Below the pieces are notes generated by a model. It was not told the origin of the DNA, made no database searches, and saw only the letters and a list, made by a program, of their open reading frames with translations. 64,000 nucleotides of DNA from a virus, in the IMG/VR virus record IMGVR_UViG_3300032238_000336, positions 9,400-73,399 of that record; one strand, given 5' to 3'. Below, in pieces: positions 13,550-45,800 of this stretch (the first letter of the stretch is position 1; each line of letters starts with the position of its first letter). A program made the position numbers and the translations under genes.

Positions 13550-14092
13550 TTATAGTTTAATAATATCAAATATAGTATACTTGAAGGTAACTTGTGCTGT
13601 CACATAATTTACATCATTTGAAGTGCTATCAAATGAAATACCACTCAGAGAAACTGGAAATAAATCTTTAAAAAAAACTTTTAAATTTGGATTGAAGGTA
13701 TTGTTATAAACAAAAAGAGTGCCATCAGACATACCTGAAATTGCATTTTGCTTTCCCTTACTATTTTCATCTTCATTCAATAGTTGCTGGTATTGACCGA
13801 AGTTATCTGGAAATCCAAATTGAACTAACCAGTTATAAACTTCTAGGTAATTCACCATATCTTCGTCTACCATAAAACGAAGAGTTAAATCATCATAAGA
13901 TAAAGTTTCTCCTGGAATAGGAATTGGTTTAAGTGGATTGGATTGAATTGCAACTCCTAAATTTAAACCTGGTAGATTTGCAGCATTACAAAAAAAATCT
14001 ATTTTTGGTTTTTTTACCAAAGAAAATTTAAATCCTATTGGAGATAAAAAGTTTCTATTTGTAATTTGACTAGGCCAAAGACTTCCCGACAT
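13550..14092 (-). CDS. gp3: Tail tube terminator / tail completion protein
   Basis: NFLSPIGFKF, FMVDEDM.NY and FKDLFPVSLS motifs. Confidence 0.88.
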   Translation of the reverse strand: MSGSLWPSQITNRNFLSPIGFKFSLVKKPKIDFFCNAANLPGLNLGVAIQSNPLKPIPIPGETLSYDDLTLRFMVDEDMVNYLEVYNWLVQFGFPDNFGQYQQLLNEDENSKGKQNAISGMSDGTLFVYNNTFNPNLKVFFKDLFPVSLSGISFDSTSNDVNYVTAQVTFKYTIFDIIKL

Positions 14093-14128
14093 TTTATCAA
14101 TTTATTCAATCACACCTATTTATTCCAA

Positions 14129-14157
14129 TAAAAAAGGACCCCCTTTTGGGAGGTCCT
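14129..14157 (-). terminator. Intrinsic terminator after gp23
   Basis: AGGACC(T)CCC-AAAA-GGGGGTCCT hairpin followed by T tract. Confidence 0.85.
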
Positions 14158-14178
14158 GAAGTTGAATGTAGCAGATTT

Positions 14179-15573
14179 CTACATCAGATTTTTTACTGTA
14201 ACTCTACGGTAGTAGTTATTGCTGTTTCTCTTAATAACTCCCAGGTCTGCATCAAGACCGCCTGCAAATGGGTTAGCAACCATACCATAACGGGTCTTAA
14301 ATCCGATTTTTGGTTGGAAGCTTCTCTCACCAACGGCACGAACCATTTGGAGGGGAACATAAGGGCAATAGAACAATCCAGCATCATAAGGTGAAGAACC
14401 CTTGTATCCTGCAACATAGTACTGAGTACCAGAGTTGTTAGCAGCATATGGGTCAATATAAACTTTGAACTTACCTTGAAGAACTCCAGCAAAAGTATTG
14501 CCGGTGTCATCAACATTCAAGTTTGCATTAAGTGCTGGGGTGTAATCAAGAATACCAGCGTGTGCAAGAGCAGAAGCGATGTCTGCAGAGCACATAATGA
14601 TATTACCCTTTCCTCTACGAGTTGTTTGTGCGATGAGGTTAGCATCACGCTCGATTTGGAAGATAAGACCTTTGAACTTCTCAACTGACCAACGACCGTT
14701 GCTGTCAACGTCAAGGTCAAAAATACCTTTAGTTGCAACGTTGTTCTGAGCACCAGGTTTAGCAATGCTATAGATGGTACGGATAACTTCTCTGTTGATT
14801 TCGGCAAGGATTTCAGTTGAGAGAATGTTAGCCAACTCAGCTTCTGCATTCAGACCGTGGATAGCTTTGAGGTCTTGTGCAAGTTCTAAACTGTACTCAG
14901 CTTTCAGAGCACGGGACTTCGCAGTAACCGATACTCTCTCAATGCTGAGAGACATTTCGTTGAACTGATTATTGCTATCATAAGTGCTACCGAGACTTTC
15001 TGCCTCAGCAGTGCTCATTCCTTGACCTACGTTATAAGCACCACTACCATCAGGGTTCAGAAGACCGGGGTTTCCACCTGATTGTGCAGTAGTACCAAGT
15101 CCAACAGCACCATCAACCCAACCCTGGTCATTATCAAAGGTAGAGTTTTGTCCTGAGAATGCGGTATCTACTTCATTGTAGAATGTTTCAGCACCAGACT
15201 GGTTCTTATACTTAGAACGCATTGCGAAGATCAAGCTTACAGGTCCACTCATTGGTTGAACACCAGCTAAGTCATATGCGACCAAGTTGGGCATTGAACG
15301 ACGAATGAGGCTGATAAGAACAGGGTCGAAACCAGCTACAGGTCCGGTTGCATCAGCACCGTAACTAAAACCAGCAGCATTAGGTGCTCCTTGAGTATTA
15401 GTAGTAGGTGATTCTGAGAGGAATTCTCTTTCTTCTCTAAGTGCTCTTTCTTGGTTCTCTAGCAAGATAGCAGTCACAGCTCTACGATGTGAATCTCCAA
15501 TAGATTCTACTCCATCGAAATCAAGGAGCGGTGCCCACTTTTCTTGCAATTGTTCTGCATTGAACATTTGCAT
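14179..15573 (-). CDS. gp23: Major capsid protein
   Basis: DPVLISLIRR, AKSRALKAEYSLELAQDL, FYCPYVPL and KIGFKTRYG motifs. Confidence 0.98.
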   Translation of the reverse strand: MQMFNAEQLQEKWAPLLDFDGVESIGDSHRRAVTAILLENQERALREEREFLSESPTTNTQGAPNAAGFSYGADATGPVAGFDPVLISLIRRSMPNLVAYDLAGVQPMSGPVSLIFAMRSKYKNQSGAETFYNEVDTAFSGQNSTFDNDQGWVDGAVGLGTTAQSGGNPGLLNPDGSGAYNVGQGMSTAEAESLGSTYDSNNQFNEMSLSIERVSVTAKSRALKAEYSLELAQDLKAIHGLNAEAELANILSTEILAEINREVIRTIYSIAKPGAQNNVATKGIFDLDVDSNGRWSVEKFKGLIFQIERDANLIAQTTRRGKGNIIMCSADIASALAHAGILDYTPALNANLNVDDTGNTFAGVLQGKFKVYIDPYAANNSGTQYYVAGYKGSSPYDAGLFYCPYVPLQMVRAVGERSFQPKIGFKTRYGMVANPFAGGLDADLGVIKRNSNNYYRRVTVKNLM

Positions 15574-15628
15574 TTGATTTACCTCTTTTAAAAAATAGTT
15601 TGTTGTTTGATTTGTTATTATCTAAAAA

Positions 15629-16876
15629 TCACTTTTTAGAAACTTTTGCGAAGGCATTGACATAAGCTTCCATAACTCCAGTTGGAGCAGAATATGGAAC
15701 CGAATCAGTAGTCTCTTCAACAAGATAATCTTGTCTGTTTCTGGTTGGAGCACTAGTATAAGTAGGGAAATAAGATTCCCTTAGAGTTACTAGTTTCTCA
15801 CGATATTCTCCTTCACCATCAAACTCAACATTTTCAGCAAGAGAGGCAAGCTTATCTTTTTGGGAAATTGCAAGACCTTCAGCTACTTCTGCAAAAATTA
15901 CATCAGTTGCTGACTCTGCTAATCTTTGGTTTAGAGCAACATTTTTTTCAATTTGCTCGTTGAGTTTTGTCTCCATATCATCTAGTTTTTCTACCATACT
16001 CTCAAGTACATCATATCTTTCTTCAGGGATTGAAACATAATGATCTTCAAAAAGTTCTTTCATTCCATTTAGGAATGATTCAGTCATTTCAGATTTGATT
16101 CCGGTTTCGATTGCGAGTGCATTTTCTTTAATCCACTCGTCGGCAACATATTCAAGATAAGAATCTACACGCTCAGTAAGTGCCTCAGTGATTTCTTGAA
16201 TTTCTTCAGAAAGTTGATCTTCATACTGACGAATGATTGCCTCTTCGATTTGTTCAGTTCTGGCATTAAGAGCTGCTTCAAAAACAGTTCTTGCCTTGAA
16301 CTTAAACTCTTCAGAAAGGTCTTCACCAGAAAGAAGAGCAGCCACATCTTCTTCAATCTGGTCTTCAATCATTTGTAGTTCTTCTTTTACATCTTCATCA
16401 TCTTCATCATCTTTAGATTCTCCACAACTCCCTTCATCATAGTCATCATTTTTTTCATTTTTTCCTTTCTTATCTTTCATCATTTTTCTTTTTTTTGATT
16501 TAGGAGTCTCATCCACCATATCTTCATCATCTTCTTTAGCCTCTAAGATTTCATCTTCATCATCATATTCGGATTCTTCATCTACTGGATTCTTCATAGT
16601 AGGCATAGGATCTGCAGCTTTTGCTTTAGCATTAACTACATTTCTTACCTGTTGTAGGACTGCGGCAGCATCTTTAAGTTTTGCTGGACCTTCAGGATCG
16701 TTTGTATAATTTTCTGGAGTTGGACCACCTAGGTCTTCCCAGCTACCAGTTTGACCATCAGGGATACCTGTAGTCAACTTAGGCATCGGGTCTCCCGACT
16801 TTGAACCTGCATTTACTGCAGTGTTAGATTGTTTAGTGCCTATTTCCATTTCTTGTAAATTTTTACCACGAGACAT
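15629..16876 (-). CDS. gp22: Prohead core scaffolding protein
   Basis: LSEEFK.KA.TVFEAA and YLEYVADEW motifs; acidic coiled coil; synteny. Confidence 0.93.
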   Translation of the reverse strand: MSRGKNLQEMEIGTKQSNTAVNAGSKSGDPMPKLTTGIPDGQTGSWEDLGGPTPENYTNDPEGPAKLKDAAAVLQQVRNVVNAKAKAADPMPTMKNPVDEESEYDDEDEILEAKEDDEDMVDETPKSKKRKMMKDKKGKNEKNDDYDEGSCGESKDDEDDEDVKEELQMIEDQIEEDVAALLSGEDLSEEFKFKARTVFEAALNARTEQIEEAIIRQYEDQLSEEIQEITEALTERVDSYLEYVADEWIKENALAIETGIKSEMTESFLNGMKELFEDHYVSIPEERYDVLESMVEKLDDMETKLNEQIEKNVALNQRLAESATDVIFAEVAEGLAISQKDKLASLAENVEFDGEGEYREKLVTLRESYFPTYTSAPTRNRQDYLVEETTDSVPYSAPTGVMEAYVNAFAKVSKK

Positions 16877-23014: not shown

Positions 23015-23022
23015 TATTTATA
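23015..23022 (-). promoter_or_regulatory. T4-type late promoter upstream of gp18
   Basis: Exact TATAAATA. Confidence 0.75.
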
Positions 23023-23039: not shown

Positions 23040-24212
23040 TTACATATAGTTCCACATATAAGAAGTGTCTTCCTTGCTATCAGCAGTAATCCAAGTATCT
23101 CCATCAGTATCGACAAAAATTTTTTCTTCTTCATTTAGTCCGTCTATTATAAAACCAAACGGTGTCATATCTTGTTCAATTTGGTCTTTCTGTTCTTCAT
23201 ATATTCTTTTACGAACATCATTGTTCGTCATTTCTTTAAAATATTCTTGAACTATTAACCAAGAAAAAATTACCAAACACATTGCAAGGTCATCATTATA
23301 TCCATCATCTGCTTCAAAAGAATTATTTTTGCTGATAAATGTGGTAAGTTCACTTATAATATCATAATCTCGTATTAAGAGTTTGTCATCTTCTATAATA
23401 GTTTTAAGATTAGAACAACCTACCCGTTTTACTTGTTTAGACATTTTTATACCAAATTGTGATTTTCTTCCAGAAAACCCTTGACCCACTACTTGGCCTG
23501 CACGACCTCTCATAGAGCACATCAGAACATTATCATACTCTAAATCCATATGAAGTTCTTTTGCTACTTGCTCTCCAATATCATTTACCTCAATTAAACA
23601 ATATGCGTTGTTATATGACTTTGCAACTTTTTCAATAACTGTTGAATATACAAACGGTTTAATTTCATTATTTCTATATTTTCCCACTACTTTATACGGA
23701 ATATTAGTTATATCAAATATTATAAATGCGTGATAATCATTTTCAGTTCCTCTAGATACATCAACAGTCATTAAATAGTTATGGTCTTCTTTAGGAGTTT
23801 CGTATACATCTAATCCTGCATTTTTAGTAATAGGTTCATCGAATATTAAAGTTTTAAGTTTTGCTGCAGTAACTAAAGTATCAATAGAACCTAAAAAGTT
23901 ACAGTTATGTGATACAATACTATTAGCATAATAGAGATTATTATTCCCTACATCTATGGGGTCATAAAGCCATATACCTTCCTCTACTATTTCATTATAC
24001 ACAATTTCTTTACCATCTAATATATCACCAATTTGTAATTGTTCAGCTGTGACTTTAGATTTCCCGAAGGGGTGAGTATTTGAACACTTTATTTCTGTAT
24101 TGTCATTAAATATTATCTGATGATAAAAAGGTTTATATACTTTCTGAATTCCTTTAAAATCTACAAACCCAGTTGGAGATAATATTTTATATCCAGAATT
24201 TGATTTAAACAT
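23040..24212 (-). CDS. gp17: Terminase large subunit, C-terminal half (nuclease domain) with N-terminal split-intein C fragment
   Basis: 103-aa IntC ending SHN, then CNFLGS, TVDVSRG, IEVND and DDLAM nuclease motifs. Confidence 0.93.
   Translation of the reverse strand: MFKSNSGYKILSPTGFVDFKGIQKVYKPFYHQIIFNDNTEIKCSNTHPFGKSKVTAEQLQIGDILDGKEIVYNEIVEEGIWLYDPIDVGNNNLYYANSIVSHNCNFLGSIDTLVTAAKLKTLIFDEPITKNAGLDVYETPKEDHNYLMTVDVSRGTENDYHAFIIFDITNIPYKVVGKYRNNEIKPFVYSTVIEKVAKSYNNAYCLIEVNDIGEQVAKELHMDLEYDNVLMCSMRGRAGQVVGQGFSGRKSQFGIKMSKQVKRVGCSNLKTIIEDDKLLIRDYDIISELTTFISKNNSFEADDGYNDDLAMCLVIFSWLIVQEYFKEMTNNDVRKRIYEEQKDQIEQDMTPFGFIIDGLNEEEKIFVDTDGDTWITADSKEDTSYMWNYM
23904..24212 (-). mobile_element. Split intein C fragment (103 aa)
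   Basis: Block B-like CSNTH; block F/G LYDPIDV...YYANSIVSHN followed by Cys+1. Confidence 0.9.
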
Positions 24213-24774
24213 GGTTCCAAGTCTTCCTCTCTATAACTTGTCTGATATTTTGAGGTGTTACTCCATATACTTCAGAATATTTAATAGAAAATAATTGTTC
24301 GTATGACATAATTTTTCCATTTTTCATCTTTTTTCCTACCCCATTTATTTTAATTTTCTGGTCATATAACTGCCTAAGACATATTACGATGGAAGCATCT
24401 AATTTGGTCGGTCTCCAAACTTTACCTTTCCTAATATTACTAAAATGAGTAATAGTCTCTTCATTAAAGCACCCAGATTTATCTTTATTCCATGGAGTAT
24501 ATCCTTTTTTTACTCCACCAATACCCTTCCTACTATATGATTCAAATCCCTCTCCACCTGGAGACCTATTCCATCCATCAGAATATGTATTATATTCTGA
24601 AATAAATTCTATTTCTTTTAATTTAGCAATATTTTTATCTTCTGTTGAAAATATAATTTTAAATTCATGTAAATCTTTAGTATTTTTATGAGCACATCTT
24701 CTCTTATTTGGATTAATTGTTTGTCCAATATATTTAATTATATTATCTTGTTTCAAAGCGTAAATATAGTACAT
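24205..24774 (-). CDS. Free-standing GIY-YIG homing endonuclease
   Basis: YIY...YIGQT..R...H...E..FI..YNT...GWN...GG; PWNK motif; lies between the two terminase halves. Confidence 0.85.
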   Translation of the reverse strand: MYYIYALKQDNIIKYIGQTINPNKRRCAHKNTKDLHEFKIIFSTEDKNIAKLKEIEFISEYNTYSDGWNRSPGGEGFESYSRKGIGGVKKGYTPWNKDKSGCFNEETITHFSNIRKGKVWRPTKLDASIVICLRQLYDQKIKINGVGKKMKNGKIMSYEQLFSIKYSEVYGVTPQNIRQVIERKTWNHV

Positions 24775-24783
24775 AGTTTTATT

Positions 24784-26655
24784 TTATATAGAACTGTATA
24801 GTTCTTCAAGTGTAATATTTTTTTCAATTCCATCCTTTAATATAGTAACCAAAGTATCTCCACCCAAACATTCAAATTCCTGTTCAAACTGTTCTTTTGA
24901 TGTGTTTGCAATCGTCTGTTCTTTCCACTTTGCATCCCTTCCTGGAACTTCAGACCAATGCACCTCAGTGGGAACGTATTCATTTTTACCTCGTTCTGCA
25001 TTTACCCACATCTTATAAAACATATTCATACCCTTGGGGGTAGAAATGATTATAACTTTTGTATTCTTACCTGAAGTAATTGTAGGATATACAGAACTAA
25101 AGAAGTCCTCTGCAATATTATTTTGAATGAACGCAAATTCGTCCAATACTAGAATATTGTATGCACCACCACGAACAGCAGAAGCAGATGTAGATGCCGC
25201 AATTATCTTTGAACCATTATCTAGTTCTAATGATGCTTTGTTCCATATTTTAACCCCGTGCTGCATCCATTTAGGAAGGTTTTCATAAGCAAGTTGAAGC
25301 TTACCTAAAATTTCTTTAGCAGTTTGAGCTTTGTTTGCAAGAATAGCAATATTTACGTTATCGTTGAATAGAATATAATGTAAAATATATGAAGTAACAG
25401 TTGTAGTATTATGAGTAGGTATAAAAGTATTTCCACACAAGAATAAATGGTCTTCTGAATCTACTTTAATACAAGCAACAGGAACACTTTCTACTTTTTC
25501 TATTTTTTGTATGTAATGCCGTTGTTCTTGTGGTCTGGTAGATTTAGTATTATTAATAGCATTTATTTTTCGGGGCAGATTAAATACACATTTTTCAGTA
25601 GTAAAAGATACCGTATGGTAATAACACTCTTTTATTTTTTTGCATCTTACTTTAGATTTTATTCCTAACGAAGATAGTAACTCAACAAATTGTAAAATAA
25701 ACTCATAATTTTTTTGATAGAACTCAAAGGACTTTGTATGGAGTTTTACTGAACCATCAGTATCCATCAATCCACGAAGAAGTTCTAGTCTATCTTCATA
25801 GGAAGACCTTAAATAATCTAATGGTATGTGTTTATTTTGCAATAAATTATAAGATTTTAATTTTGATTGCAATTCTTTTATTTTAAACCGAATACAATTA
25901 TTATCTTTTCTCTCATACTCCACATTCATTTTAGTTTTATAATACTCATAATCTTCTTTATGAGATATAATTCTCCCATCACGAGAGTATCCATCCCCTA
26001 ACCAAACACCTAGAAGATATGGGTCAATATTTAAATTCTTTTTAGTAAAATTGCAAGGATTTGATTTATTGATATATAATGTTCCTTGAACTCCTTTACC
26101 CCTAATATTGTTGGTTTTATTTTGATATCTATCAAAAATTTCACCTGAAGTTATTACTTTTTTACCAGTTCTCCAATATGAACTATTCACTTCCCATAAA
26201 TGGTCAGAATCTGCAATAATTTCTTCTCCATTATCAAAATATAATTTATAACAATCGTGGTTATACATAGTTTCAGTTTTCAGAATTACTGAAACTGGAT
26301 TTCCAGAAGGAGACATAATTTTATCCCCTTCCTTAAGGTCTCCCATAGTAGTCCACCCATCAGGAGTAGGTATCGGAGTATCTAATGCTAATGCTTTCCC
26401 ACACTGCCTAGGCATTTTACAGATATTAAATCTGTTCTTATGAAATCTTTGAACTAGTTTCTCTTGAAACTTCCTCATTTTAAAAGGAACTACACCTTCG
26501 TCAACACTTACAATCTTTACATAATTTTTACAAAAATATAAAGGGTCTTTATTGCACTTTATATACTCAGCAATTTGTTCTTTAGTAAACTCCTGCTTTG
26601 TATTTGCTTTTTTTAGATGAGGATTACCAAGATACTGTTCAGAAGGAGGGCTCAT
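24784..26655 (-). CDS. gp17: Terminase large subunit, N-terminal half (ATPase) with a cis-intein and C-terminal split-intein N fragment
   Basis: YLGNP, PRQCGK|TT Walker A interrupted by an intein, LDEFAF Walker B, STPKG, ends EQEFE-CLGGDT... Confidence 0.95.
   Translation of the reverse strand: MSPPSEQYLGNPHLKKANTKQEFTKEQIAEYIKCNKDPLYFCKNYVKIVSVDEGVVPFKMRKFQEKLVQRFHKNRFNICKMPRQCGKALALDTPIPTPDGWTTMGDLKEGDKIMSPSGNPVSVILKTETMYNHDCYKLYFDNGEEIIADSDHLWEVNSSYWRTGKKVITSGEIFDRYQNKTNNIRGKGVQGTLYINKSNPCNFTKKNLNIDPYLLGVWLGDGYSRDGRIISHKEDYEYYKTKMNVEYERKDNNCIRFKIKELQSKLKSYNLLQNKHIPLDYLRSSYEDRLELLRGLMDTDGSVKLHTKSFEFYQKNYEFILQFVELLSSLGIKSKVRCKKIKECYYHTVSFTTEKCVFNLPRKINAINNTKSTRPQEQRHYIQKIEKVESVPVACIKVDSEDHLFLCGNTFIPTHNTTTVTSYILHYILFNDNVNIAILANKAQTAKEILGKLQLAYENLPKWMQHGVKIWNKASLELDNGSKIIAASTSASAVRGGAYNILVLDEFAFIQNNIAEDFFSSVYPTITSGKNTKVIIISTPKGMNMFYKMWVNAERGKNEYVPTEVHWSEVPGRDAKWKEQTIANTSKEQFEQEFECLGGDTLVTILKDGIEKNITLEELYSSI
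24787..24870 (-). mobile_element. Split intein N fragment (28 aa)
   Basis: CLGGDTLVTILKDGIEKNITLEELYSSI-stop, a block A pattern directly after EQEFE. Confidence 0.88.
25408..26394 (-). mobile_element. Cis-intein (329 aa, Ala1, class 3 signature) with LAGLIDADG endonuclease domain
   Basis: Starts ALALDTPIPTPDGW; DHLW, VACIKV and PTHN/T; LAGLIDADG-like LLGVWLGDG and LLRGLMDTDG. Confidence 0.92.
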
Positions 26656-27629
26656 ATACCTGTAAATAATAATGGTTTAGTTGGGTCTTTAATTGATGGT
26701 GCATAAGAAAAGACCGTTGCATTTGGATATATTTTTCTTATCTCAAATACAACTTCATCTTTGGTAGGTCTCGATGATTTAGGGAAAAATATTTGAACTG
26801 AAAGATGTTGACCTTTCCAACTCAATAAAACAGTATAAGTTAAACCACGAGATTGTATTCTTGTATATTCTTCATCTACGTTAGTTTTTTCTGTTTTATT
26901 TCCCCAGTTTGATGCACCAACTTTACGGCATTTGACAAGTGCTCCAGATGCATATGCAGAAGGCCAAATTTTATATCTACTTTTTACTTTATGGTAACAG
27001 GCATCCTTTTCACCTTTTTTTTCTTGAATGCATTCTTCTTGTGTCACAATCTTTGCATCTCCTGACCTATTTGGATTCGGGTCTTCTCTACGTTTTTTAG
27101 CAGCTCTCTCATCTCTTTCTTCTTTACTCATAGAGGCTCGAACATCAGCATCTCTGCAATATGGTTTAGTTGTTTGTCCAGGTTGACGGGCACAAGGTTT
27201 ACCATCATATTTTCCTCCAGTTTGAACCCATCCCTTAAACCAATCTCTCAAAGAATAATCAAGATCTCTCGGAGTTTTTCCATCCAATTCTTCCTTTACA
27301 TCTTTAAACTTTTTATGTTCTTTTTTGGCAGATGCTTCCATTTTTTTCAAACGAGTATAATAATCTGGAATTTCATCAAGATGCTGTAAAGCAATATCTG
27401 TTGCTAAAACTTTATCTTTGGTATGTTCGTGCTCAATGGGAATTCCCATTTCAAGTTGATGCTTTATAAAAGAAACATCAAGACGATGTTTTTTTGCAAT
27501 TTCATTAACTGTTTTATATGATTTTAATTTTGAACAATTTTTAGTTCCGTGTGATGGGCAATATTTTCCCTCACCCGATTGATTACATATTGAAGTAGCT
27601 TCCAAAATAAACGCAGTAAAACTTTTCAT
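26652..27629 (-). CDS. Mosaic hypothetical protein between gp16 and gp17, possible internal head protein
   Basis: 325-aa ORF; N-terminal MKSFTAFILE; modules EHEHT...HLDEIPDYY and PSAYASGALVKCRK. Confidence 0.7.
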   Translation of the reverse strand: MKSFTAFILEATSICNQSGEGKYCPSHGTKNCSKLKSYKTVNEIAKKHRLDVSFIKHQLEMGIPIEHEHTKDKVLATDIALQHLDEIPDYYTRLKKMEASAKKEHKKFKDVKEELDGKTPRDLDYSLRDWFKGWVQTGGKYDGKPCARQPGQTTKPYCRDADVRASMSKEERDERAAKKRREDPNPNRSGDAKIVTQEECIQEKKGEKDACYHKVKSRYKIWPSAYASGALVKCRKVGASNWGNKTEKTNVDEEYTRIQSRGLTYTVLLSWKGQHLSVQIFFPKSSRPTKDEVVFEIRKIYPNATVFSYAPSIKDPTKPLLFTGI

Positions 27630-27640
27630 TGCATTTTTGA

Positions 27641-28063
27641 CTATTTATCTTTCATACTATTTTTTAAAAATTTTTGAAGGTCAGCAGTGGAACCAACAAA
27701 TAGTGCATTTGTAGTATTATTGGTAATATTTGTTTTATTCTCCTCTTCTTTCAACTTTTTCATTTTTTGTTGATTATCTAATAATTTATCGGAAATATCT
27801 CCAACTGTCTTTAATAGTTGACCAACAACTTCAAAATCTCTTGCTTTTTGAGTTTCTTTTGCTATTTCAAACATTTCATATGCAGCGTGCTGTCCCATCT
27901 CCATCAACTCATATAAATTATCACGAGTATACTTTTCATCATCATCAATAGTTCCTTCTATTGGTTTTGCTAATTCTACTTTTGCTTTTTTAACTATTTT
28001 TTTAGACATTTCTTTTACATCAATATCTAAAACTTCATCTATTTTATCGAAATTGTTATTCAT
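27641..28063 (-). CDS. gp16: Terminase small subunit
   Basis: R.FEV.GQL and NNTTNALFVGSTADLQK motifs. Confidence 0.92.
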   Translation of the reverse strand: MNNNFDKIDEVLDIDVKEMSKKIVKKAKVELAKPIEGTIDDDEKYTRDNLYELMEMGQHAAYEMFEIAKETQKARDFEVVGQLLKTVGDISDKLLDNQQKMKKLKEEENKTNITNNTTNALFVGSTADLQKFLKNSMKDK

Positions 28064-33811: not shown

Positions 33812-34003
33812 TCATTTAACTAAAGAACGTAAAAGTAATTTAATTTCATCAATATCATTTTTGATAGTATCAATTTCAGTTTTTTGATTTATAATAATAT
33901 TTTTAACTTTTAAGTATTCATTATATTCTGCATCACTGCAATTTAAAATCGCATTACTAGTTTCATCCCGGTAAAGTTCACTATGTCCTTTTACTGGTAT
34001 CAT
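33812..34003 (-). CDS. Small hypothetical protein
   Basis: VKGH..LYRD..S.AI.N; overlaps the stop of the upstream gene. Confidence 0.7.
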   Translation of the reverse strand: MIPVKGHSELYRDETSNAILNCSDAEYNEYLKVKNIIINQKTEIDTIKNDIDEIKLLLRSLVK

Positions 34004-37000
34004 AATGTTGCTATTGCCCTCAGATTTTTAATTCTAGGAACAAATGATTGATTTGTTCCAGTCATTATAATTTTAATTTGGAATCCATTAAATACCGGCA
34101 AGTTTGAATCTGTATACTCATAACTTCTAAAATCATTAGAACTGATTGAGGGTGATACAAAAGTATCAGAATTTCCAGTATTTTTAGAATAGTTTATAAT
34201 ATTTCCATTTTCATCTAGGTTATTATACCCTGGGAATAACTCATAGTTTTGTTTTTGATTTGGACTATCATTTCTGAATAATCTATACATAACTTTAATT
34301 TCATTAGTAGAATGTCTATATGCATCTAATAAAACCTTTAGACTATCTGCGGATTTTGCAAGATTTATTTGCTTAGAAATATAAATCGCAGAGTTGGGAT
34401 CCGTATCAATTCCATTTACTCTTGGGTCAAGTGTAAAATCTAATACTGGACTATCGATACGGTTCATTACTGTAATCAAACTAACTCGGTCTAAGTCAAT
34501 GATTGGTGATACTTTGGAATCATTAGTTGATAACACCATTTCTAAAGTAAAAGATTTTTTACCTGGGAAATCTCCAAGTCTATCTTCTTCATTCACTTTG
34601 GAGCAAATAATTCTAGTACTAGAAAGATAGTTGTTAGAATTTAAAGAAATATTTTCATAACCATTATCGATATATGGAACTTCATTGCCACTTACACTAG
34701 TTCCAGTAAAGGTTCTAATTCTACTTTCAATAGTAGTAGAGTTCGGTAGTAATGTTTGAACATTTGGTTTTACTAAATTGAAAGCAATATTTTGAGTTGC
34801 CTTTGGTCCAACCATCGAATCAGTTTGTGGAGTTGTATAAAGATAAGAACCACCTGACTTTGTAGAATTGAAAAATAATTTGGGACCTGTAATATTATTA
34901 TCCAATGTTCTATTAATTCCACCAGAAGACATATTGAGATGGATATAATAACTATCAATTTCAATAGGAGATTTTATATTATGAGTTTTATTAATTCTTC
35001 TTAATGATATTCCATTAAATTCATATTTAAATACCAAATCATTTTGTTTATGTAAATTTAATTTAGTTGTATCGATTGCTCTAAGTATTCCTCCTAGGGT
35101 ATTGGTATTAGTATTAACACTAGTGTATTGAATAATCTCATCATTTATCAAAATATAACCAGGATTTCCAGGTCCAACTGGAATATTTTCAAAAGTAGTA
35201 AAGATATTGACGTTAGATAATTTAATATCTGAAGTTGATGTTGAAGGATATTCGGAAGAAAGAGTAACTGGAGAGACATCAGATTCTATTCCACTTAGAG
35301 AAACAATAGAATTTTCAAAATACATTCCGTGATTTGAATGGGATACTTTTAAATATGTTCCAGTATTGATTGAAGAATATGAACTTACATATGCATTTGT
35401 AATTGATATTCCATTAGAAACAATATAATCTATGGATGTATTAGTATTATTATCGACAGTTCCTTGGATATTATCAATTTTAATTGAATTAAATGCAGAG
35501 ATGATTCCCACATTATTTGGTATACTAAGAACTAGGTTCTTGCCGAAATTATCAGTATTACTATAGTTTATAGTTAATGTATCTCCAACTGCATATCCAG
35601 AACCACCCGAACTTACTGTCGCAGAACTTACTTTACCAAAAGCATCAGTAACAATGTTTGCGGTTGCTCCACTTCCATAACCTGTGATATTTACTATATT
35701 TACATTTGAATAAGTTGTGGATGGAATAAATCCAGTGCCAGAATCATTTATTGATAACGTAGTCCCTATTCCGATAGATCCTAATATGGAAACTAATCTT
35801 CCTGAGAAGTAAGGATTATTTAATTGAGTAATTCCAGCACCAACTTTTAAATTTGAAATATCAGTTGGAGTTAAACTCTTGCCCAACCCTACAATAGCAG
35901 ATTGGGAATAAGCAGAAATTGGGTTAGGGGACAATGATACTATTTGATGATTTCCAATATTTAACTCTGGATTATAGAATCTTACAGAACCTGAAGTGTC
36001 AAAGTCAGCTCTATATAATACAAATTTTAAGTCTTCTAACTGACTTGGTTCCCAAGTGGAACCATTCTGAGACTTAAATAAAGACCCAAGGGTTGGTTGT
36101 TGAGAGATTATAATTTTTTCAGAATCTGGTTTGTTAATAGTAGAAACATCAGTTTCTCCCATTCTAGAAATCCAAACAGTATAAGAATCAGATGCTGATA
36201 CTAATACTAATGCATATCCACTACCCGTTTGTTCTAAATATACTGGAGATGGGAATACAAAAGTAGTAGGAACTGTTCCATCTTCCGAGATATTTACATC
36301 TTTTGCTTCCATAACAGTTTCTGCAAATGGTAAAACCTGTTGAGTAGGAGTTCCATTTTGCATAGTTCTAATCTGCAAGGTAACTGGAATATTATTAGTA
36401 TCTTTTGAACGGAAGAATATATCACATTTTGTAATGAATACTCCATTAGTATCTGCTACCTCAAATGATTGTGCTAAAGGGTCTACCCACCTATTTGTAG
36501 TTCTAGTATTAGAATCAAAAATTGTATTTGTTGTGGTTGTTGCGTTTCTAATTCTAAGAGTGGTTTCTTGAGTATTATTTAAAGTTCCACTTGAAGTAAA
36601 TACTGCATCCGCTGAACTATCAGAAATACCAGTAATTTGAGAATTTGATGAACTACTAGTTAGGGTTAGTGTCTTACTTCCAGTAAGGAAAGTTGGAGTA
36701 GATGGCAGATTAGAATCCGGAATAAAAAGAGATGCAATTAAAGTACCACTAGAGTCTGAAATTAATCTTAAATCTGAAATGGTAGCTATAGCACCACTTG
36801 TGTCTCCTATCAGTTGCATACCAATCGAAACGCAACCATAAAACTGTGAAGTAGATTTCAGTTGTAAACTAAATGTATCCACATTCAATAATGTAGAAGT
36901 AGGTGAATAAACACTAGGTAATCCTAATGAAATTTGATATGGATTTACATCATAGATTTCCGTAGGTGCATTGTACGGACCATATTTGTGATTTTGAGAA

Positions 37001-40000
37001 GCAAGTCTAAATGAAATATTTTTAGTACCTAATACTCCAGTTACAGTTTCTCCTGCTTGGAAAGTTCCACTTACCATCTTCACTTCCAAAAGTTTTGGAA
37101 TGAAGTATTGATTCATATCTTTACTATCAAAAAATCCATAGAATCTAGTATTTGGTTTTAGTCTTTTTGCAACAACTTCAATATTTCTAGACCTCATTTC
37201 GAGAATAATACTTTGAGAAACTATATTAGAAGAAGTAGTTGCATCAAACTTCTCATTCACTTGAACTTGAGTTCCAGTCCTGTTAACTGTTGTTACATCT
37301 GTAACTAATCTTCTTCCGCTTCCTCTTGGGTCTATTGTAATATTTGATTCATTCCAAGAATTCCATTGTGCTGGAGCAAATCCAGTGTTACTATCTGCAC
37401 CCAATGAAGATATAGTTGAATTATAATTCCCTTCCACATTTACAGTATTACTACCGATGACTTTAGATTCAAACCAACTATCACTAGATGGGTGCAATGC
37501 TATAGATCCTAACCAGTTAATAACATTAAATGGATTTACATTTTCAACTCTAGATGAGAATCTATTTTTAACATATTCTACATCTCTGTAGTTTAAACAA
37601 ACTATATCACCTACTTTTTTAATATTTGGAGATCCTAAATCGTTAACGTATCTGGGGTCTGCATCTGGGTTATATACTATACCAGTGCCACTTACTAACT
37701 CAGACCCAAGTAACAAATCAATAGAAGTGGTATAATGTTGGGGTCTTAAAGTCTCATTCTCTAAATCAATACTTGATTTAAAACTAAGATTCTGAGAATC
37801 TCCCCCATCTAAGCTCTTAAAATTATCTACAAAAAATCCACACTTAAATTTATTTAAATTAGTCTGAGAATCTCTAATAGTTAAATTTTTAGTATCGGTC
37901 TCTAATAAAGATAACGAAGTGTAATATTCTACATTTGATACTCTATCATCTATATTAGAAATATCTTTCATAGTATATCTCTTATGTGGAGATAGAACAA
38001 TATTGCAATCATCTACATTATACAAATATGCAGGTAAATAAATTGTAGCAACTTCTAATGCTGAATCTAAAGTATTAGGCAATGTTGGAGTTATTGAAGG
38101 AACTCCGGTATTAATAACAAAATTTCCATCTTTAGTTAAAAATAATTTATCAATTCTTGGTAAATAATATGAATATGATAGATTTATTGTTTTATCCTTA
38201 GCAAAAATATATGGAGATGACCCATACTCTGAAGAAAATACTCTTGAACTAAATTCAAATGGAGACGCATTTCCCGAGTATGTGGAAACTCTTGGCCTTA
38301 AATCAATAATATCAGTAGATCTTATTCCATTAAATACTGGTATATTAAATGAATACCTATCTTTGTCGTATGAGTTTACTCCAACGAAATCACCATCATC
38401 ATCGGGTTTAATAGTATAGTTATTGTAGATTATTTTAAGTTTTTTTGTTGGACTCTCAGCATTCGACTTTCGTATAATTCTTGAAAAATCTAAAAACTCT
38501 TTTCTGTATCCATTATCAAAAATATAAGAATTTCTAATATTTTTATCCCCTACTGAAACTGAAAATACGGTTCCCTTTACATTAGATACTTCAAATGTAA
38601 CTTCTTCATTGATAATAAATCTATTCTCATTTAAATATACTAAATTTACTTTATTATTAATAGTTGAAACTAACGTAGCAACTGCATTACTTTTAGTTCC
38701 AATAATCTTTTCACCAATACTAGAATTTAAAATATTAGAATTTAAATTAGTTAGAGTAATTGATGGTAGTTGCGGTTCATTAGTAGTTGAAGATTCATAT
38801 ACCGCTAAAACAGATTCAACATCTGGAATATTTAAAGATATTTCTTTATCTTCTACCCTTAAACCGTATACATTGCTGAGAGTTAGACCACTTGTAGAAG
38901 TAGATACTCCAGAAATAGTTTTATCTATAACTAATGTAGAGCAAGGATTATATATTTTTTTACGAGTCTTAGTATTAACTTTTTTAAATGTTACTGTAAG
39001 TATAGCACCATTTGAATTTGGAGGAATGCCTTGTATTGTTATAGTTTTATTGTTAGTTATTACTTTCTGATTATCTAATGAAACTATAACTCCATCTGAA
39101 AATGCTAAAGTATAATCTTCCTCATCAAATGGTTCTAAAGTTAAATCTTGATTGCCAGACTCTAATGTTACAGTATATGAACCTGTAGTAAAATTACCAG
39201 GAGCAATATTATATGACTTTTTGATGATTACGTCAGAACTTTCAAGATTTAAATTTGAAATGTTTTTATTATGCAATTCAGAATACAAATAAGCATTGGA
39301 TGTATTCAATAGTTCTAATGTAATTTTTTTAAAATCATTTACTGTAGATACTGCAGTTGGTAAACTACCTAAACATACATTAGGGACATCTACAGTAGGA
39401 ATGATTGTTATTGATTTTAGTGTTGGACTAATATTAGATACTTTACTGTATGTTGGTAGTTTGGAACTTCCAATAGTGTACGATACAATATCTCCTACAT
39501 TTATTCCAGAATAGAAATTTTGATTTGAACTAGTTACTGTACTTATTCCAGAAGTACCATCCGAGATTGAGAATGAACTAGAAGAACCTAGTATTACTTC
39601 TTTAGACAACAATACGTCAGCAGTAAACCCATTTTGATATAATTGATGAATATCAGAAATTCCATAATCTCTAACGGATCTAATAGTTCTAGTATCATCT
39701 ATGCCATTAATTTTGATTTGTTCTCCTATTAGGAAAGTTCCGGAAACTTGATATAATGATACTTCATTTGAGTTTGTTACATTAGACACTAAATATCCAG
39801 AAGCTCCACCATTTTTACCTTCAATAAAAGCAGGAACAGGTATAGTAGAAATATCTGAGTTTAAAGTGAGTTCAGTATATGTTTGAATATCATATAAAGA
39901 ACATTCAAATTTTGTAGATGAATCTACATATTCAGAATTTTTAAGTTTAAAGTCGTATACTCTTGCTACACCAATTTCAGTTCCGGATGGAAAACCAGTA

Positions 40001-41280
40001 CTTAACGTTCTATCACTGTATAATTTTACAATAGAAGTTGTATTAATTCCAACGGGAATGCTTCTACATACATTATTCAATATTATTTGCTTACCTATAC
40101 TGAATGGTATAGACTCATTAATTACGGTAGTAGTCTGTCTGGGTTTACTAATATCAATTTGAGAAGTGGTAATAGTTTCTACTTCATATCCTTTAACATA
40201 GGCCTTACCTACATCTATACTAAGACAAGCTAAATCATTAGAAGGATTATTTCCCTCTGCAGTTTGTTGCCCTAGATTATAAATGCCATTATTTCCAATT
40301 TTATTATTCAATGATTCATTTAATGTAACTTTAAATGGTTTTACATAATAGTTTCCAGACTCATCATAAGTTCTTCTTGCAAGTTCATCAGTTAATAAAC
40401 TATTAGTTGTAGTTTTTGTAATTTTTTCTACAATACCATTTTTTACTCTTAATAATTCAATAAAATTTTCATCATTGAAGTCATCTAATGATTTTTTAAT
40501 TAAAGTAGTATTAATAACTAATCTATCTGCACCAGATGATGTATAATTTGAAAATCCCTGAGCATTATCAAACAAATCATTATATTCATTAGATGCTACA
40601 GCAAAGTCTTCTTGAATTAATAGACCAATTCTATATGATGGAGTATTTGTGTATTGGTCTAAAATGACTGTTTGTGGTGAAACTTCTACAAAATATCCTC
40701 TAATAAAATATACACCTGCTGCTATTTTTGCAGCAGTTCCTACAGAAGTAGATTCTGAAGAAATTGTAGTTGCAAAAGTAGAATTTGCTCGTAATGAAGA
40801 TACTGAATAGTCAACATCTTCAAGAATAATCAAGTTTTCAGAATCATTAAATTTACTTAATCCAAAATTATTAGTATCAGAGCTTTGATACTTTATATAA
40901 AGTGTATAATTTGATCTATCAGAATCTACATTAGTAATATAATTGTCTATTTTTGCTTTAACTCCACTAGTTTCACCTTGAATCAGTTTTCCTACAAGAT
41001 TATCAATATATGCAGATACGGGAATACCTAAATGAGAATCGTTAATTTCAACACAAGTATAATTAAAATCATAAGCAATTTGTCCAGGTATAACTACTGA
41101 CCCTTCTTTGAAAAAATGATTACCAAATTTTTCAATTTGATTTTGTAAGATGGATTGTAATGTAGTAATTTCCCTTGCTTGAATGGAAGTCCCTGGTTTA
41201 AAAAGTACCTTATAATAATTTTTTAAAGGATCAAAATCATCGTAATATGGAAAAATGTTGAGATTTGTATTTTGAGCCAT
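34000..41280 (-). CDS. Large virion structural protein (VrlC/DUF4815-like)
   Basis: PYYDDFD, QARE.T.LQ, LARRTYDESGNY, GFFVDNF and DPLAQSF motifs; 2426 aa. Confidence 0.85.
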   Translation of the reverse strand: MAQNTNLNIFPYYDDFDPLKNYYKVLFKPGTSIQAREITTLQSILQNQIEKFGNHFFKEGSVVIPGQIAYDFNYTCVEINDSHLGIPVSAYIDNLVGKLIQGETSGVKAKIDNYITNVDSDRSNYTLYIKYQSSDTNNFGLSKFNDSENLIILEDVDYSVSSLRANSTFATTISSESTSVGTAAKIAAGVYFIRGYFVEVSPQTVILDQYTNTPSYRIGLLIQEDFAVASNEYNDLFDNAQGFSNYTSSGADRLVINTTLIKKSLDDFNDENFIELLRVKNGIVEKITKTTTNSLLTDELARRTYDESGNYYVKPFKVTLNESLNNKIGNNGIYNLGQQTAEGNNPSNDLACLSIDVGKAYVKGYEVETITTSQIDISKPRQTTTVINESIPFSIGKQIILNNVCRSIPVGINTTSIVKLYSDRTLSTGFPSGTEIGVARVYDFKLKNSEYVDSSTKFECSLYDIQTYTELTLNSDISTIPVPAFIEGKNGGASGYLVSNVTNSNEVSLYQVSGTFLIGEQIKINGIDDTRTIRSVRDYGISDIHQLYQNGFTADVLLSKEVILGSSSSFSISDGTSGISTVTSSNQNFYSGINVGDIVSYTIGSSKLPTYSKVSNISPTLKSITIIPTVDVPNVCLGSLPTAVSTVNDFKKITLELLNTSNAYLYSELHNKNISNLNLESSDVIIKKSYNIAPGNFTTGSYTVTLESGNQDLTLEPFDEEDYTLAFSDGVIVSLDNQKVITNNKTITIQGIPPNSNGAILTVTFKKVNTKTRKKIYNPCSTLVIDKTISGVSTSTSGLTLSNVYGLRVEDKEISLNIPDVESVLAVYESSTTNEPQLPSITLTNLNSNILNSSIGEKIIGTKSNAVATLVSTINNKVNLVYLNENRFIINEEVTFEVSNVKGTVFSVSVGDKNIRNSYIFDNGYRKEFLDFSRIIRKSNAESPTKKLKIIYNNYTIKPDDDGDFVGVNSYDKDRYSFNIPVFNGIRSTDIIDLRPRVSTYSGNASPFEFSSRVFSSEYGSSPYIFAKDKTINLSYSYYLPRIDKLFLTKDGNFVINTGVPSITPTLPNTLDSALEVATIYLPAYLYNVDDCNIVLSPHKRYTMKDISNIDDRVSNVEYYTSLSLLETDTKNLTIRDSQTNLNKFKCGFFVDNFKSLDGGDSQNLSFKSSIDLENETLRPQHYTTSIDLLLGSELVSGTGIVYNPDADPRYVNDLGSPNIKKVGDIVCLNYRDVEYVKNRFSSRVENVNPFNVINWLGSIALHPSSDSWFESKVIGSNTVNVEGNYNSTISSLGADSNTGFAPAQWNSWNESNITIDPRGSGRRLVTDVTTVNRTGTQVQVNEKFDATTSSNIVSQSIILEMRSRNIEVVAKRLKPNTRFYGFFDSKDMNQYFIPKLLEVKMVSGTFQAGETVTGVLGTKNISFRLASQNHKYGPYNAPTEIYDVNPYQISLGLPSVYSPTSTLLNVDTFSLQLKSTSQFYGCVSIGMQLIGDTSGAIATISDLRLISDSSGTLIASLFIPDSNLPSTPTFLTGSKTLTLTSSSSNSQITGISDSSADAVFTSSGTLNNTQETTLRIRNATTTTNTIFDSNTRTTNRWVDPLAQSFEVADTNGVFITKCDIFFRSKDTNNIPVTLQIRTMQNGTPTQQVLPFAETVMEAKDVNISEDGTVPTTFVFPSPVYLEQTGSGYALVLVSASDSYTVWISRMGETDVSTINKPDSEKIIISQQPTLGSLFKSQNGSTWEPSQLEDLKFVLYRADFDTSGSVRFYNPELNIGNHQIVSLSPNPISAYSQSAIVGLGKSLTPTDISNLKVGAGITQLNNPYFSGRLVSILGSIGIGTTLSINDSGTGFIPSTTYSNVNIVNITGYGSGATANIVTDAFGKVSSATVSSGGSGYAVGDTLTINYSNTDNFGKNLVLSIPNNVGIISAFNSIKIDNIQGTVDNNTNTSIDYIVSNGISITNAYVSSYSSINTGTYLKVSHSNHGMYFENSIVSLSGIESDVSPVTLSSEYPSTSTSDIKLSNVNIFTTFENIPVGPGNPGYILINDEIIQYTSVNTNTNTLGGILRAIDTTKLNLHKQNDLVFKYEFNGISLRRINKTHNIKSPIEIDSYYIHLNMSSGGINRTLDNNITGPKLFFNSTKSGGSYLYTTPQTDSMVGPKATQNIAFNLVKPNVQTLLPNSTTIESRIRTFTGTSVSGNEVPYIDNGYENISLNSNNYLSSTRIICSKVNEEDRLGDFPGKKSFTLEMVLSTNDSKVSPIIDLDRVSLITVMNRIDSPVLDFTLDPRVNGIDTDPNSAIYISKQINLAKSADSLKVLLDAYRHSTNEIKVMYRLFRNDSPNQKQNYELFPGYNNLDENGNIINYSKNTGNSDTFVSPSISSNDFRSYEYTDSNLPVFNGFQIKIIMTGTNQSFVPRIKNLRAIATL

Positions 41281-42864: not shown

Positions 42865-45800
42865 TCAAAGTAATAGAGGGACTGTTCTGGAAACTTGAGA
42901 TGAAGTAGATAGACCAATTAATCCGTTATCGGTATTCACATCGAATTGTTTAGGAGTTCCCAATTGTCGATTATCATAATCATAGAATTTACCCCAACTA
43001 TAATTTCCATAAAAACTAGTTTGTGATAATCCTGCAATATTTACAGATAATCCACCATCTACAGCAACAAAATTGCATTTAACGGTAACAATTCCTGCGT
43101 TAGGTAGTGTTACATCTTCTACTCTATACACACCATCTATAAAACTTCTTGCAGTTCCAACTTTTGAATTTGGATAATTGGACATCCCACCTAAACTATC
43201 GGTTATTCCAGTCAATGCGTGTCCGCATATTACATTACTATTAGAAATTACAAAGTAGTCTCCAATTTCTAGTTGACTTGAATTAATTCCAAAAGTATTT
43301 AAAGAACTATATCCAATTCCTAAATTATCATTATCATATGTATTTGATTTTAGTTCAAAGTCTATTCTTCCAGTTTGTATTCCAGGAGAAGATGCAAATG
43401 TGTTAATTCCAACTATAGAACCATAATCTCCTTTAACCTTTACTGAAGTAAGTTTTTCATATTTTATTATGTCTAATGAAGTATAATCTAAAATATTAAT
43501 ATTTCTCTTGAATTCTGGTAATCTATTTGGACCGGAATCTAATTCACTGAAATATGGAAATGCATCATTTACATAAACTGCAGTATCATTGATACCTACA
43601 GAATTGATTAAGAATGTGTTAGGAATAATATTAGATTTTAAAGTCGTTCTTGATTTAGAAATCAAAGAACCATTGATAATTCTATCCGCAGTTTGTTTAG
43701 TCCAACTTAGAGGTCTAGCAGTATTTGTGATGCCATATCCAGTATAAACAAAAGTATCTAAAGTATTTGATTGTACTATTCTTTTAACAACTCGTTCTAA
43801 TTGTTCTGTAGTTATTGCAGAGGTTATATTTTGTCTAGATTGTAAAATATCCCCATCTTTTATAGTTTGAACTGGAGTGACCTCCTCCACATCAGAACTA
43901 GACCCCCTATAGAATAATATAGTGCAAGTTGATCCAGAAGAAGGAGGCTCTGTAAATAATATTCTTCCAGCAAAGTATCTGTATGCTACAGTCGGTACTT
44001 GTAAAATACCATTAATAAGAATAAAGAAATTATTTTCGATAGTTAAATCTGAACCCGAAGGAACTTTAAATGTAATTCTAGTATCAATTCCATTCACGGG
44101 AGTTGTTATATCAAATAATCTTTCAAAACCATTAAATTTATTTGAAATATCATTAAACTGTATGAACTGTCCAGGATAATAACCACTAAAGATATCAGAA
44201 ACAGTTTCAGTTACAGTTAATTTAAATTCATCAAATAAATTCCCCGCAGTTGGGTCTGTAGTTAATCCTACTACTCTTAGAACATCTCCTACTTTATATA
44301 AAGAACCTGGGTCATTTAATAAGAAATTTCCAATACTTGTATCACTTGCAACTAAAATCGATACTTTAGCACCAGTTCCTAATCCAGAATTTTCTGGAGC
44401 ATATTCTACATCTAAGTTATAATATGGCAAAGGAGTATCGATATTTACAATAGGAACCGAAGTTGAAGTGTAACCACTTCCTGGATTCACGATTGTAAAT
44501 CCAGTTATAGTTCCAGATGCTCCTACATTAGCAACAATGGACGCCCCGGTTCCAACTATGGAACCTAGGTTAATATATGGAGAGGTTCTATACCCGCTTC
44601 CTGCCCCTGTAAGATACACATTAGAGATAGTGCCTAATCCAGAAACAGAAACTGTTGCAGCAGCACCTACAAGAGGCACATAACCAAAGGCAGTATTGAT
44701 ACCAACATTTAAAATCTTACCGGAATTTGGAATTCCTGTTAAATAACTAATCTCATTTGCATTACTATTTTGAATTGTGAAATCAGTTTCAGGAACCTGT
44801 AGTACATTGTTTATGAATACTAATGGGTTATTACTCGCATTAGTTCCATAGTTTCTATTATTATAAATTTGTGTTATATTATTTTGATTTTCTTTTAAAA
44901 TGAATGTAGATAGTCCTGTAAACTGGTCTGAGATATCATCAAAAATAAGATTTTTATCATCTGGATATGCAGGGTCAAATTTTCTACTGAATACTCTACC
45001 TGAGAAAGAAGATGATACTTTTAGTCCTTCTAACCCAGTAGGACCTTGTGGGGGAGATGTAAAGAATATAGTGTCTTCAATGATATTATAATCACCTCTG
45101 ATGATATTAATATCAGACCCAGATGTATGATTATTTTCTTGAGTTCCTAGGAAACCTCGTTCAACATTTATTACATTAGTTGAACCTATACCTACATTAA
45201 TTATTTTTAGGAGTTCATCATTAATTTTAAGAATATCAATAGTTGAAATGGAACTTATTCCCGAGTTCACATAAATTGAATTTATTCCCACATTAGCATC
45301 ATTCACTAATCCTAAAGTGATTGGTCTATTGTAGAGTGGTTTTTGTATAATATTATCAATAGAAATTAAAGCATTAGCATTTGGATTATCTACAGTAAAT
45401 TTATGAGTTCCTATTCCTAAACTAGTTAGTTCTAATCTTGTAGATGTAGATAGACCGGATACTTGGAAACTATTGTCATTAATTTTATTAACATATAACG
45501 TTGAAGGTAATATATCTGTAGATATTCCTCCTGAAACTAAGTTAGTAGTAGTAATTCTAATAGGAGTGCCACCTTGATATGAATAGAATATTTTTTGACC
45601 AGTTTGTAAGTTATGATTGGTAATATTAAAACTATAGGTAGTCAAATTTACAATAGAACTATCATTGGAGTTAAAAGTTCTACTGAAGAGAGGGATATTT
45701 TTATTAGTTAATTTGAATGAACTAATTCCAGATACTATATTACCATTTAATCTTCTAGAAAAACTTAATCTTTCAGTTACTATTCCTGAATATGATTTAT

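Follow-up and report, generated by a model that had tools for sequence, protein, structure and literature searches.

A gp17 terminase gene of a cyanophage-type virus predicted to need one cis-splicing and one trans-splicing event

How could a phage obtain a working DNA packaging motor from a large terminase gene that is interrupted by one intein and broken in two by another? The question is raised by positions 23040-26655, minus strand, of the 64,000-nucleotide stretch of viral DNA analysed here (the window), which comprises bases 9400-73399 of a 73.4-kb viral contig from IMG/VR (IMGVR_UViG_3300032238_000336; CheckV completeness 39%). To judge from its genes, the source virus is a T4-like, cyanophage-type myovirus, and three open reading frames (ORFs) that fill the region carry the parts of its large terminase, gp17. 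An initial annotation had read them as a single gene holding three mobile elements, and had proposed that the full-length protein needs one cis-splice and one trans-splice. The present analysis recovers three modules, namely an intein that bears a LAGLIDADG domain, a split intein and a GIY-YIG gene that stands by itself, and homology together with the conservation of the splicing residues supports the predicted need for both events.

Architecture of the split gp17 gene

ORF1 (24784-26655, on the minus strand like the rest of the locus) encodes a 623-amino acid (aa) precursor of the N-terminal part of gp17, which can be divided into 87 + 329 + 179 + 28 residues. The N-extein (87 aa; 26395-26655), 69% identical to gp17 of phage P-SSM2, ends in PRQCGK, the first half of the Walker A motif, and is followed by a contiguous intein, hereafter the cis-intein (329 aa; 25408-26394), which runs from Ala1 to a terminal THN with Thr at position +1. 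The middle extein (179 aa; 24871-25407; TTTV...EQEFE) supplies the rest of the ATPase domain, and the N-terminal half of the split intein, IntN (28 aa, beginning with Cys1; 24787-24870), completes the frame in front of the stop codon at 24784-24786. ORF2 (24205-24774), a predicted free-standing GIY-YIG homing endonuclease gene (HEG) of 189 aa, begins 9 nucleotides (nt) past the ORF1 stop and overlaps the start of ORF3 by 8 nt. ORF3 (23040-24212; 390 aa = 103 + 287) opens with the C-terminal half of the split intein, IntC (103 aa; 23904-24212), which ends in SHN and is followed by Cys+1, the first residue of the C-extein (287 aa; 23043-23903; CNFLGS...) with its nuclease domain. With a slash marking each junction, the sequences read PRQCGK/ALALDT...IPTHN/TTTV around the cis-intein, EQEFE/CLGGDT...SSI(stop) at the end of ORF1 and M...IVSHN/CNFLGS at the head of ORF3.

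Removal of the 329-aa cis-intein and of the 28- and 103-aa halves of the split intein joins 87 + 179 + 287 = 553 residues, an arithmetic from the initial annotation that our script reproduced exactly. When the reconstructed protein is aligned with intein-free gp17, its three extein pieces prove colinear with the complete P-SSM2 protein (547 aa; 68-72% identity), and they are also colinear with the terminase of Synechococcus phage B3 (880 aa). The junctions and the P-SSM2 alignment bear out the restoration of Walker A (PRQCGK-TT) and of EQEFE-CNFLGS, the latter conforming to EFE-C(N or E)FLGS in the alignment, and by tblastn with P-SSM2 gp17 the P-loop is interrupted cleanly by exactly 987 nt and the EFE/C site by exactly 967 nt.

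The two halves of the enzyme are recognisable on either side of the break. Pfam Terminase_6N matches residues 417-601 of ORF1 (E 7.5e-17) and Terminase_6C residues 149-310 of ORF3 (E 1.2e-14); each half also aligns with structures of T4 gp17; and the C-extein matches the nuclease domain of RB49 (3C6A; E 3.4e-43), a construct that begins at about the C-extein start. Read with the domain limits of T4 gp17, these placements therefore locate the split at the boundary between the ATPase and nuclease domains, as had been proposed.

Two inteins and a homing endonuclease of known kinds

The two splicing halves of the cis-intein align to the M. smegmatis DnaB intein (Msm DnaBi1; 6BS8) with an E value of 2.2e-26, without gaps over the first 70 residues, and the alignment matches Ala1, His65, Trp67, the block-F Cys (308 here) and the terminal Thr-His-Asn. 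Class 3 inteins are defined by a non-nucleophilic first residue, a Trp/Cys/Thr (WCT) triplet, and Thr or Ser at +1 (Tori et al., PMC2807308). In the window, Ala1 stands directly after PRQCGK in place of a Ser, Thr or Cys nucleophile, the triplet is formed by Trp67 (block B position 12), Cys308 (block F position 4) and Thr327 (block G position 5), and the THN/T junction provides Thr at +1. By these residues, and in agreement with the initial annotation, the cis-intein is class 3. In a survey of 62 distinct relatives from 89 loci, the key residues Cys48, His65, Trp67, Cys308 and Thr327, together with His328 and Asn329, are invariant (62/62), 21 have Thr and 41 have Ser at +1, and position 1 is occupied by Ala in 56, by Ser in five and by Pro in one.

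The centre of the cis-intein is a predicted double-motif LAGLIDADG nuclease: LAGLIDADG_3 (PF14528) matches inside it (E 3e-10), and two motifs with acidic residues are present, LLGVWLGDG at residue 127 and LMDTDG near residue 210. The element is inserted between the Lys and the Thr of Walker A, the 'classic' P-loop site of mycobacteriophage TerL inteins (PMC5050341), and class 3 inteins are mostly found in ATPase P-loops, phage terminases among them (PMC2807308). In its Ala1, its WCT triplet, its Thr/Ser at +1 and its Walker A site, the element thus resembles the inteins of MP-Be DnaB (PMC2807308), Msm DnaBi1 (6BS8, PMC6195587) and the mycobacteriophage TerL proteins (PMC5050341). It differs from those systems in its host protein, a T4-type (Terminase_6) gp17 of a cyanophage-like virus, and it carries a LAGLIDADG domain, whereas Msm DnaBi1 is a mini-intein. 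The family is common among GenBank phages (853 matching records); the nearest copies there, at 66% identity and with no others close, are those of Synechococcus phages B3 and B23, whose 880-aa terminase holds the P-loop intein alone. The Pfam model Intein_splicing (PF14890) has no match on the contig, a blank that is uninformative about other inteins there, because the model misses these inteins too.

In the case of the split intein, IntC matches PDB 6DSL chain B ('Consensus engineered intein CatC') over all 103 residues (E 6.2e-41), and IntN, extended by the EFE residues of its native extein, matches CatN (6DSL_A; E 1.1e-4). Cat represents the consensus of AceL-TerL and GOS-TerL, atypical split inteins that occur in nature, which have an IntN of 25-37 aa and an IntC of about 104 aa and which, like Cat, trans-splice in vitro (reviewed in PMC11766414, through which we cite the primary studies Thiel 2014, Bachmann & Mootz 2015 and Stevens 2018). 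The window shares with them a large terminase host, a native EFE N-extein, an IntN that holds block A only and a long IntC, which here contains the block-B His, LYD and SHN, and it has the Cys1/Cys+1 pair reported for AceL-TerL (PMC11766414). On the basis of these matches the split intein is a member of the atypical family of AceL-TerL, GOS-TerL and Cat. As differences we note its 28-aa IntN and the class 3 intein that the locus also has in its P-loop. Among the related alleles described below, 14 of 14 with a split intein of this Cys1 type keep Cys1, the block-B His, LYD, SHN and Cys+1, and IntC is exactly 103 aa long in all of them, although the IntC sequences have diverged down to 61% identity. 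In a collection of 5.8 billion proteins, 202 clusters out of 218 candidates carry an IntC-like head, and all 120 of those among the matches listed have a Terminase_6C body, with lengths of 261-422 aa.

ORF2 is predicted to be a GIY-YIG homing endonuclease. Support comes from a match to PHROG 314, 'homing endonuclease' (E 8.5e-11), and from PF01541, which is matched by 13 of the 13 members of its family (best E 8.6e-9), while a profile of these 13 proteins searched against the PDB returned a single weak match, to the GIY-YIG domain of UvrC (E 0.29). The gene is intact, at 189 aa and with the 8-nt overlap onto IntC, in 13 of the 14 Cys1-type alleles. The arrangement of two adjacent same-strand ORFs bearing split-intein halves, with a homing endonuclease gene in between, corresponds to the 'fractured genes' of Dassa et al. 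2009, in which split-intein halves surround a free-standing GIY-YIG or Vsr-like endonuclease gene (PMC2677866). Their set shares with the window the common strand, the intervening GIY-YIG gene, the overlapping frames and the T4-like/cyanophage context, and it includes a gp17-like terminase locus from Lake Gatun with an unusual split point and a long C-part (PMC2677866). That locus is incomplete, its C-part being reported as 122 residues, whereas the gene in the window is whole and contains a second, contiguous intein. Two minor features of the endonuclease gene may be added: in one allele (L036:3999-4565) the GIY-YIG ORF is only 95 aa long with both intein halves intact, and looks like a decaying homing endonuclease; and in the window just 9 nt (24775-24783) separate the end of ORF1 from the beginning of the HEG, against 27-42 nt in the 13 related alleles.

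Recurrence and mobility of the two elements

Related loci were collected from IMG/VR with three queries, namely IntC (10 loci), the cis-intein (best 80 of 103) and the middle extein (best 80 of at least 597), and the pooled loci represent 132 distinct alleles, as defined by a 300-nt key. The Cys1-type split intein accompanied by the 189-aa GIY-YIG gene was found in 14 alleles, the window included, and nine of the 13 others (L004, L008, L010, L018, L025, L027, L036, L037 and L041) also have the class 3 intein in the P-loop; L005, L007, L009 and L137 are without it, as is the partial locus L006. The initial annotation had judged such co-occurrence to be seemingly uncommon, a view contradicted by these nine distinct alleles, by the presence of a split intein at the downstream site in 16 of the 57 distinct P-loop-intein alleles in which that site can be read, by one allele with three inteins and by the cultured phage VP-1, described below. 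Among alleles found through IntC with both sites readable, three of six have the P-loop intein. The 66 distinct alleles chosen by extein similarity only comprise 59 without inteins, three with the P-loop intein only, two with the split intein only, one with both and one in which the P-loop is unreadable.

Further elements use the same gene. Split inteins of a Ser1 type occupy the same EFE/ site without a HEG in L046, L071, L085, L102 and L087, with inserts of 448-575 nt (448-538 nt in the first four), and with a different, longer insert of 1355-1536 nt in L039, L045, L069 and L083; in the alleles other than L087 the IntC is 32-40% identical to that of the window, and a Ser1/Cys+1 pairing has been reported for GOS-TerL (PMC11766414). 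A third contiguous intein, of about 430-440 aa, is located in the ATPase C-motif region of L067, L072, L076, L089 and L087/L088, where it sits after ...IIxS and begins with Cys (for example, L076:6357-7847). All three inteins are combined in one gp17 in a single allele, found on two contigs (L087/L088).

As to cultured phages, an IntC-like sequence is present in 51 GenBank phage records, all of them below 60% identity to the IntC of the window. In Aeromonas phage PX29 (GU396103), the homologous site is annotated with 17A, 'putative N-intein', and 17B, 'putative GIY-YIG endonuclease and C-intein'; unlike in the window, HEG and IntC form one in-frame fusion and the P-loop is free of inteins. Vibrio phage VP-1 (MH363700) has a P-loop intein of about 179 aa that begins with Cys1 (class 1 type) and, at the same downstream site as the window, an IntN, a GIY-YIG region and an IntC, and is thus a cultured phage with a two-intein terminase. 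The IntC sequences of PX29 and VP-1 are merely 33-37% identical to that of the window, and in Shigella phage JK32 the terminase is split at the Walker B region instead. As regards the VP-1 record itself (L176, 1837-5179), the P-loop intein within its 739-aa 'terminase large subunit' coding sequence is unannotated in GenBank; in this coding sequence an IntN-like segment is continued in the same frame by a GIY-YIG-like region, and the IntC-like segment straddles its end and the next coding sequence.

The nearest relative of the window, L014/L094, has 88-90% DNA identity over about 7 kb and exteins that are 94-100% identical in amino acids, the middle extein of L014 being the same in 179 of 179 residues (100%). 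L014 has the cis-intein and lacks exactly window positions 24868-23904, a clean 965-nt indel at the splice site that corresponds to the whole IntN-HEG-IntC unit (23904-24868, minus strand), and it represents the empty allele for the split element. The IntC and HEG of the window are in turn closest to those of L004 (80% and 76%), though the exteins of L004 are only 58-69% identical. On a FastTree tree of the exteins from 110 distinct full-length alleles, 54 have no intein, 31 the P-loop intein only, 16 the P-loop and split inteins, four the split intein only, four the P-loop and C-motif inteins, and one all three; the state of the P-loop intein changes at least 8 times and that of the split element at least 19 times. 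The split-intein unit is in fast turnover.

All three components are under purifying selection. The ratio dN/dS of the cis-intein is 0.10-0.12 against closer alleles and 0.11 against L008; that of the HEG is 0.10-0.20 against closer alleles (L004, L005) and 0.48 against the more distant L008; and the values for IntC are 0.12-0.13 and 0.23, respectively. When the cis-intein of the window (25408-26394) is compared with that of L014 (L014:1037-2023; 84% amino acid identity), dS reaches 0.85, above the 0.31-0.43 of the flanking exteins, which suggests that the cis-intein has a history of its own, with exchange independent of the host gene. Both elements are thus best read as selfish and mobile, and they would coexist because the P-loop intein is fairly stably inherited within a clade, whereas the split-intein/HEG unit comes and goes.

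Proposed maturation of gp17, rival readings and genomic context

The reading that we favour, with a probability of roughly 0.85, is that the phage has a functional gp17 that would need both a class 3 cis-splice and a Cys1/Cys+1 trans-splice, a need imposed by two selfish elements that persist through their own nucleases. Two independent elements would have colonised the single gp17 of the phage. Class 3 splicing depends absolutely on the block-F Cys and proceeds via a branched thioester intermediate. By this mechanism, once ORF1 is translated, Cys308 of the cis-intein would attack the N-terminal junction, the N-extein would be handed to Thr+1 and Asn329 would cyclise, restoring the P-loop. The split-intein unit divides the gene where the ATPase and nuclease domains meet; IntN, the 28-aa tail of ORF1, would dock into IntC, the 103-aa head of ORF3, and Cys1/Cys+1 chemistry would ligate the halves in trans to give the 553-aa terminase. 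We infer that both splicing reactions occur and that DNA packaging needs them.

Several points weigh against this reading. The case for splicing is made by homology and conservation; the HEG of the window, taken by itself, stays below the Pfam GIY-YIG cut-off (E 0.0037; 18 vs 22.6 bits); and, as the contig is 39% complete and none of the five related contigs searched reaches 90%, a second intact gp17 might be encoded elsewhere in the genome. The 73.4-kb contig has one Terminase_6N and one Terminase_6C match, and no second intact gp17 was found in it or in five related contigs (27-58% complete, with one Terminase_6N each). In addition, the raw counts show an enrichment, the split element being present in 17 of 52 alleles with the P-loop intein vs four of 58 others; two of the three allele samples were, however, selected on the elements themselves. 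An independent-pairs test finds no association of the P-loop intein with the split element (median p 0.625; 8 pairs, giving little power), with 3.6 pairs in the same direction, 1.0 in the opposite direction and 3.4 without difference. As the enrichment vanishes in this test, functional coupling was dropped as an explanation: the co-occurrence is not unusual, it shows no association beyond shared ancestry, and the two elements are not functionally linked.

The initial annotation had gone further and suggested that the two Cys-dependent splicing reactions could act as a redox or temperature checkpoint. On this view they would have been co-opted, so that maturation of the terminase, and with it packaging, would pause under oxidative stress or at unfavourable temperature. 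Msm DnaBi1, the closest solved homologue of the cis-intein, is indeed blocked reversibly by H2O2 via a disulfide between Cys48 and Cys118 (PMC6195587), the cis-intein of the window carries a cysteine at each of the two aligned positions (48 and 308), both invariant in the 62 relatives, and the rates of AceL-TerL (optimum 8 C) and GOS-TerL depend on temperature (PMC11766414). The host is probably an oxygenic phototroph, as indicated by the Kyanoviridae matches, and a redox trap formed by Cys48 and the block-F Cys might, at long odds, pause packaging under oxidative (high-light) stress, with temperature-sensitive trans-splicing adding a second condition. However, Cys48 is needed for splicing itself in Msm DnaBi1 (PMC6195587), and its conservation is therefore no pointer to regulation. 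More than this, 54 of the 110 related alleles are without any intein, the nearest relative L014 is without the split element, the elements show no association beyond shared ancestry in the independent-pairs test, and both have intact homing nucleases, because of which they can persist without benefit to the phage. We thus regard a checkpoint as unlikely; were it true, conditional protein splicing would be acting on a viral packaging motor.

Still less probable, in our opinion, is that the split intein no longer splices and that its fragments serve as a non-covalent docking pair for the ATPase and nuclease halves. There is a precedent in Aeh1 NrdA, an enzyme fragmented by a HEG that assembles without ligation (cited in PMC2677866), and the break lies at a domain boundary, where it would be most tolerable. 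The invariance of Cys1, the block-B His, the C-terminal His-Asn and Cys+1 in 14 of 14 alleles despite IntC identities as low as 61%, the IntC dN/dS of about 0.12 and the in vitro splicing of AceL-TerL, GOS-TerL and Cat (PMC11766414) all speak for retained splicing activity. That the locus is a chimeric assembly or a dead, decaying terminase, as might be suspected of a metagenomic viral contig that is 39% complete, is a negligible prospect in view of the same arrangement on nine other distinct alleles from independent IMG/VR contigs, the open state of all ORFs, the precise insertion boundaries, the strong purifying selection and the 202 public protein clusters of IntC-TerL C-halves.

Returning to a gp17 that is spliced twice and occupied by two selfish elements, each component is of a known kind, the combination recurs in public data and no new mechanism is revealed. 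We found no description of this combination in a cyanophage-type gp17 in the literature searched, which did not extend to the primary AceL-TerL, GOS-TerL and Cat papers, where a prior description is possible; the available parts of PMC7468147 and of bioRxiv 10.1101/2025.01.02.630785 contain nothing on it. The value of the locus is that of a clean natural example, a whole gp17 gene that unites an atypical split intein and its GIY-YIG gene with a class 3 intein in the P-loop, and for which the near-isogenic L014 supplies the empty site of the split element. More generally, the terminases of T4-type cyanophages are an intein hot spot with at least three insertion sites (P-loop, C-motif and ATPase/nuclease hinge), and a single gp17 can hold up to three inteins. 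The set of loci should be useful for the study of homing dynamics, and it adds new natural members to a split-intein family that serves as a protein-engineering tool.

The surroundings of the gene fit the proposed phage type. Genes were found for DNA polymerase, helicase, major head protein, scaffold, portal, tail tube, baseplate wedge and tail sheath, as well as for the small terminase and a tail-sheath stabiliser, and at the DNA level the Kyanoviridae cyanophages are closest to the terminase region, with about 67-74% identity over the extein parts. The gene order is gp15 - gp16 - DUF5661 ORF - gp17 - gp18, all on the minus strand. The T4 late-promoter motif TATAAATA has 10 matches in the window, vs 15 expected by chance, and none within the terminase locus; one TATAAATA match lies upstream of gp18 (23015-23022, minus strand). 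Scans for sigma-70 promoters and terminators gave background levels, and co-transcription of the three ORFs of the terminase locus is therefore something that we infer.

The ORF between gp16 and gp17 (26652-27629, minus strand) encodes a 325-aa DUF5661 protein and shares 4 nt with the beginning of gp17; at the corresponding position Synechococcus phage B3 carries a hypothetical gene. Near the gp16/DUF5661 boundary (27524-27727, minus strand) there is a weak GIY-YIG-like match (E 0.0027), which is below the cut-off, contains three internal stops and is probably due to chance. Elsewhere in the window, two giant ORFs of 2426 and 3497 aa occupy positions 34000-41280 and 42865-53358 (minus strand) in the structural module, and the G+C content reaches 0.41 at positions 14001-16000, vs about 0.30 elsewhere, coinciding with the major head protein gene (14179-15573).

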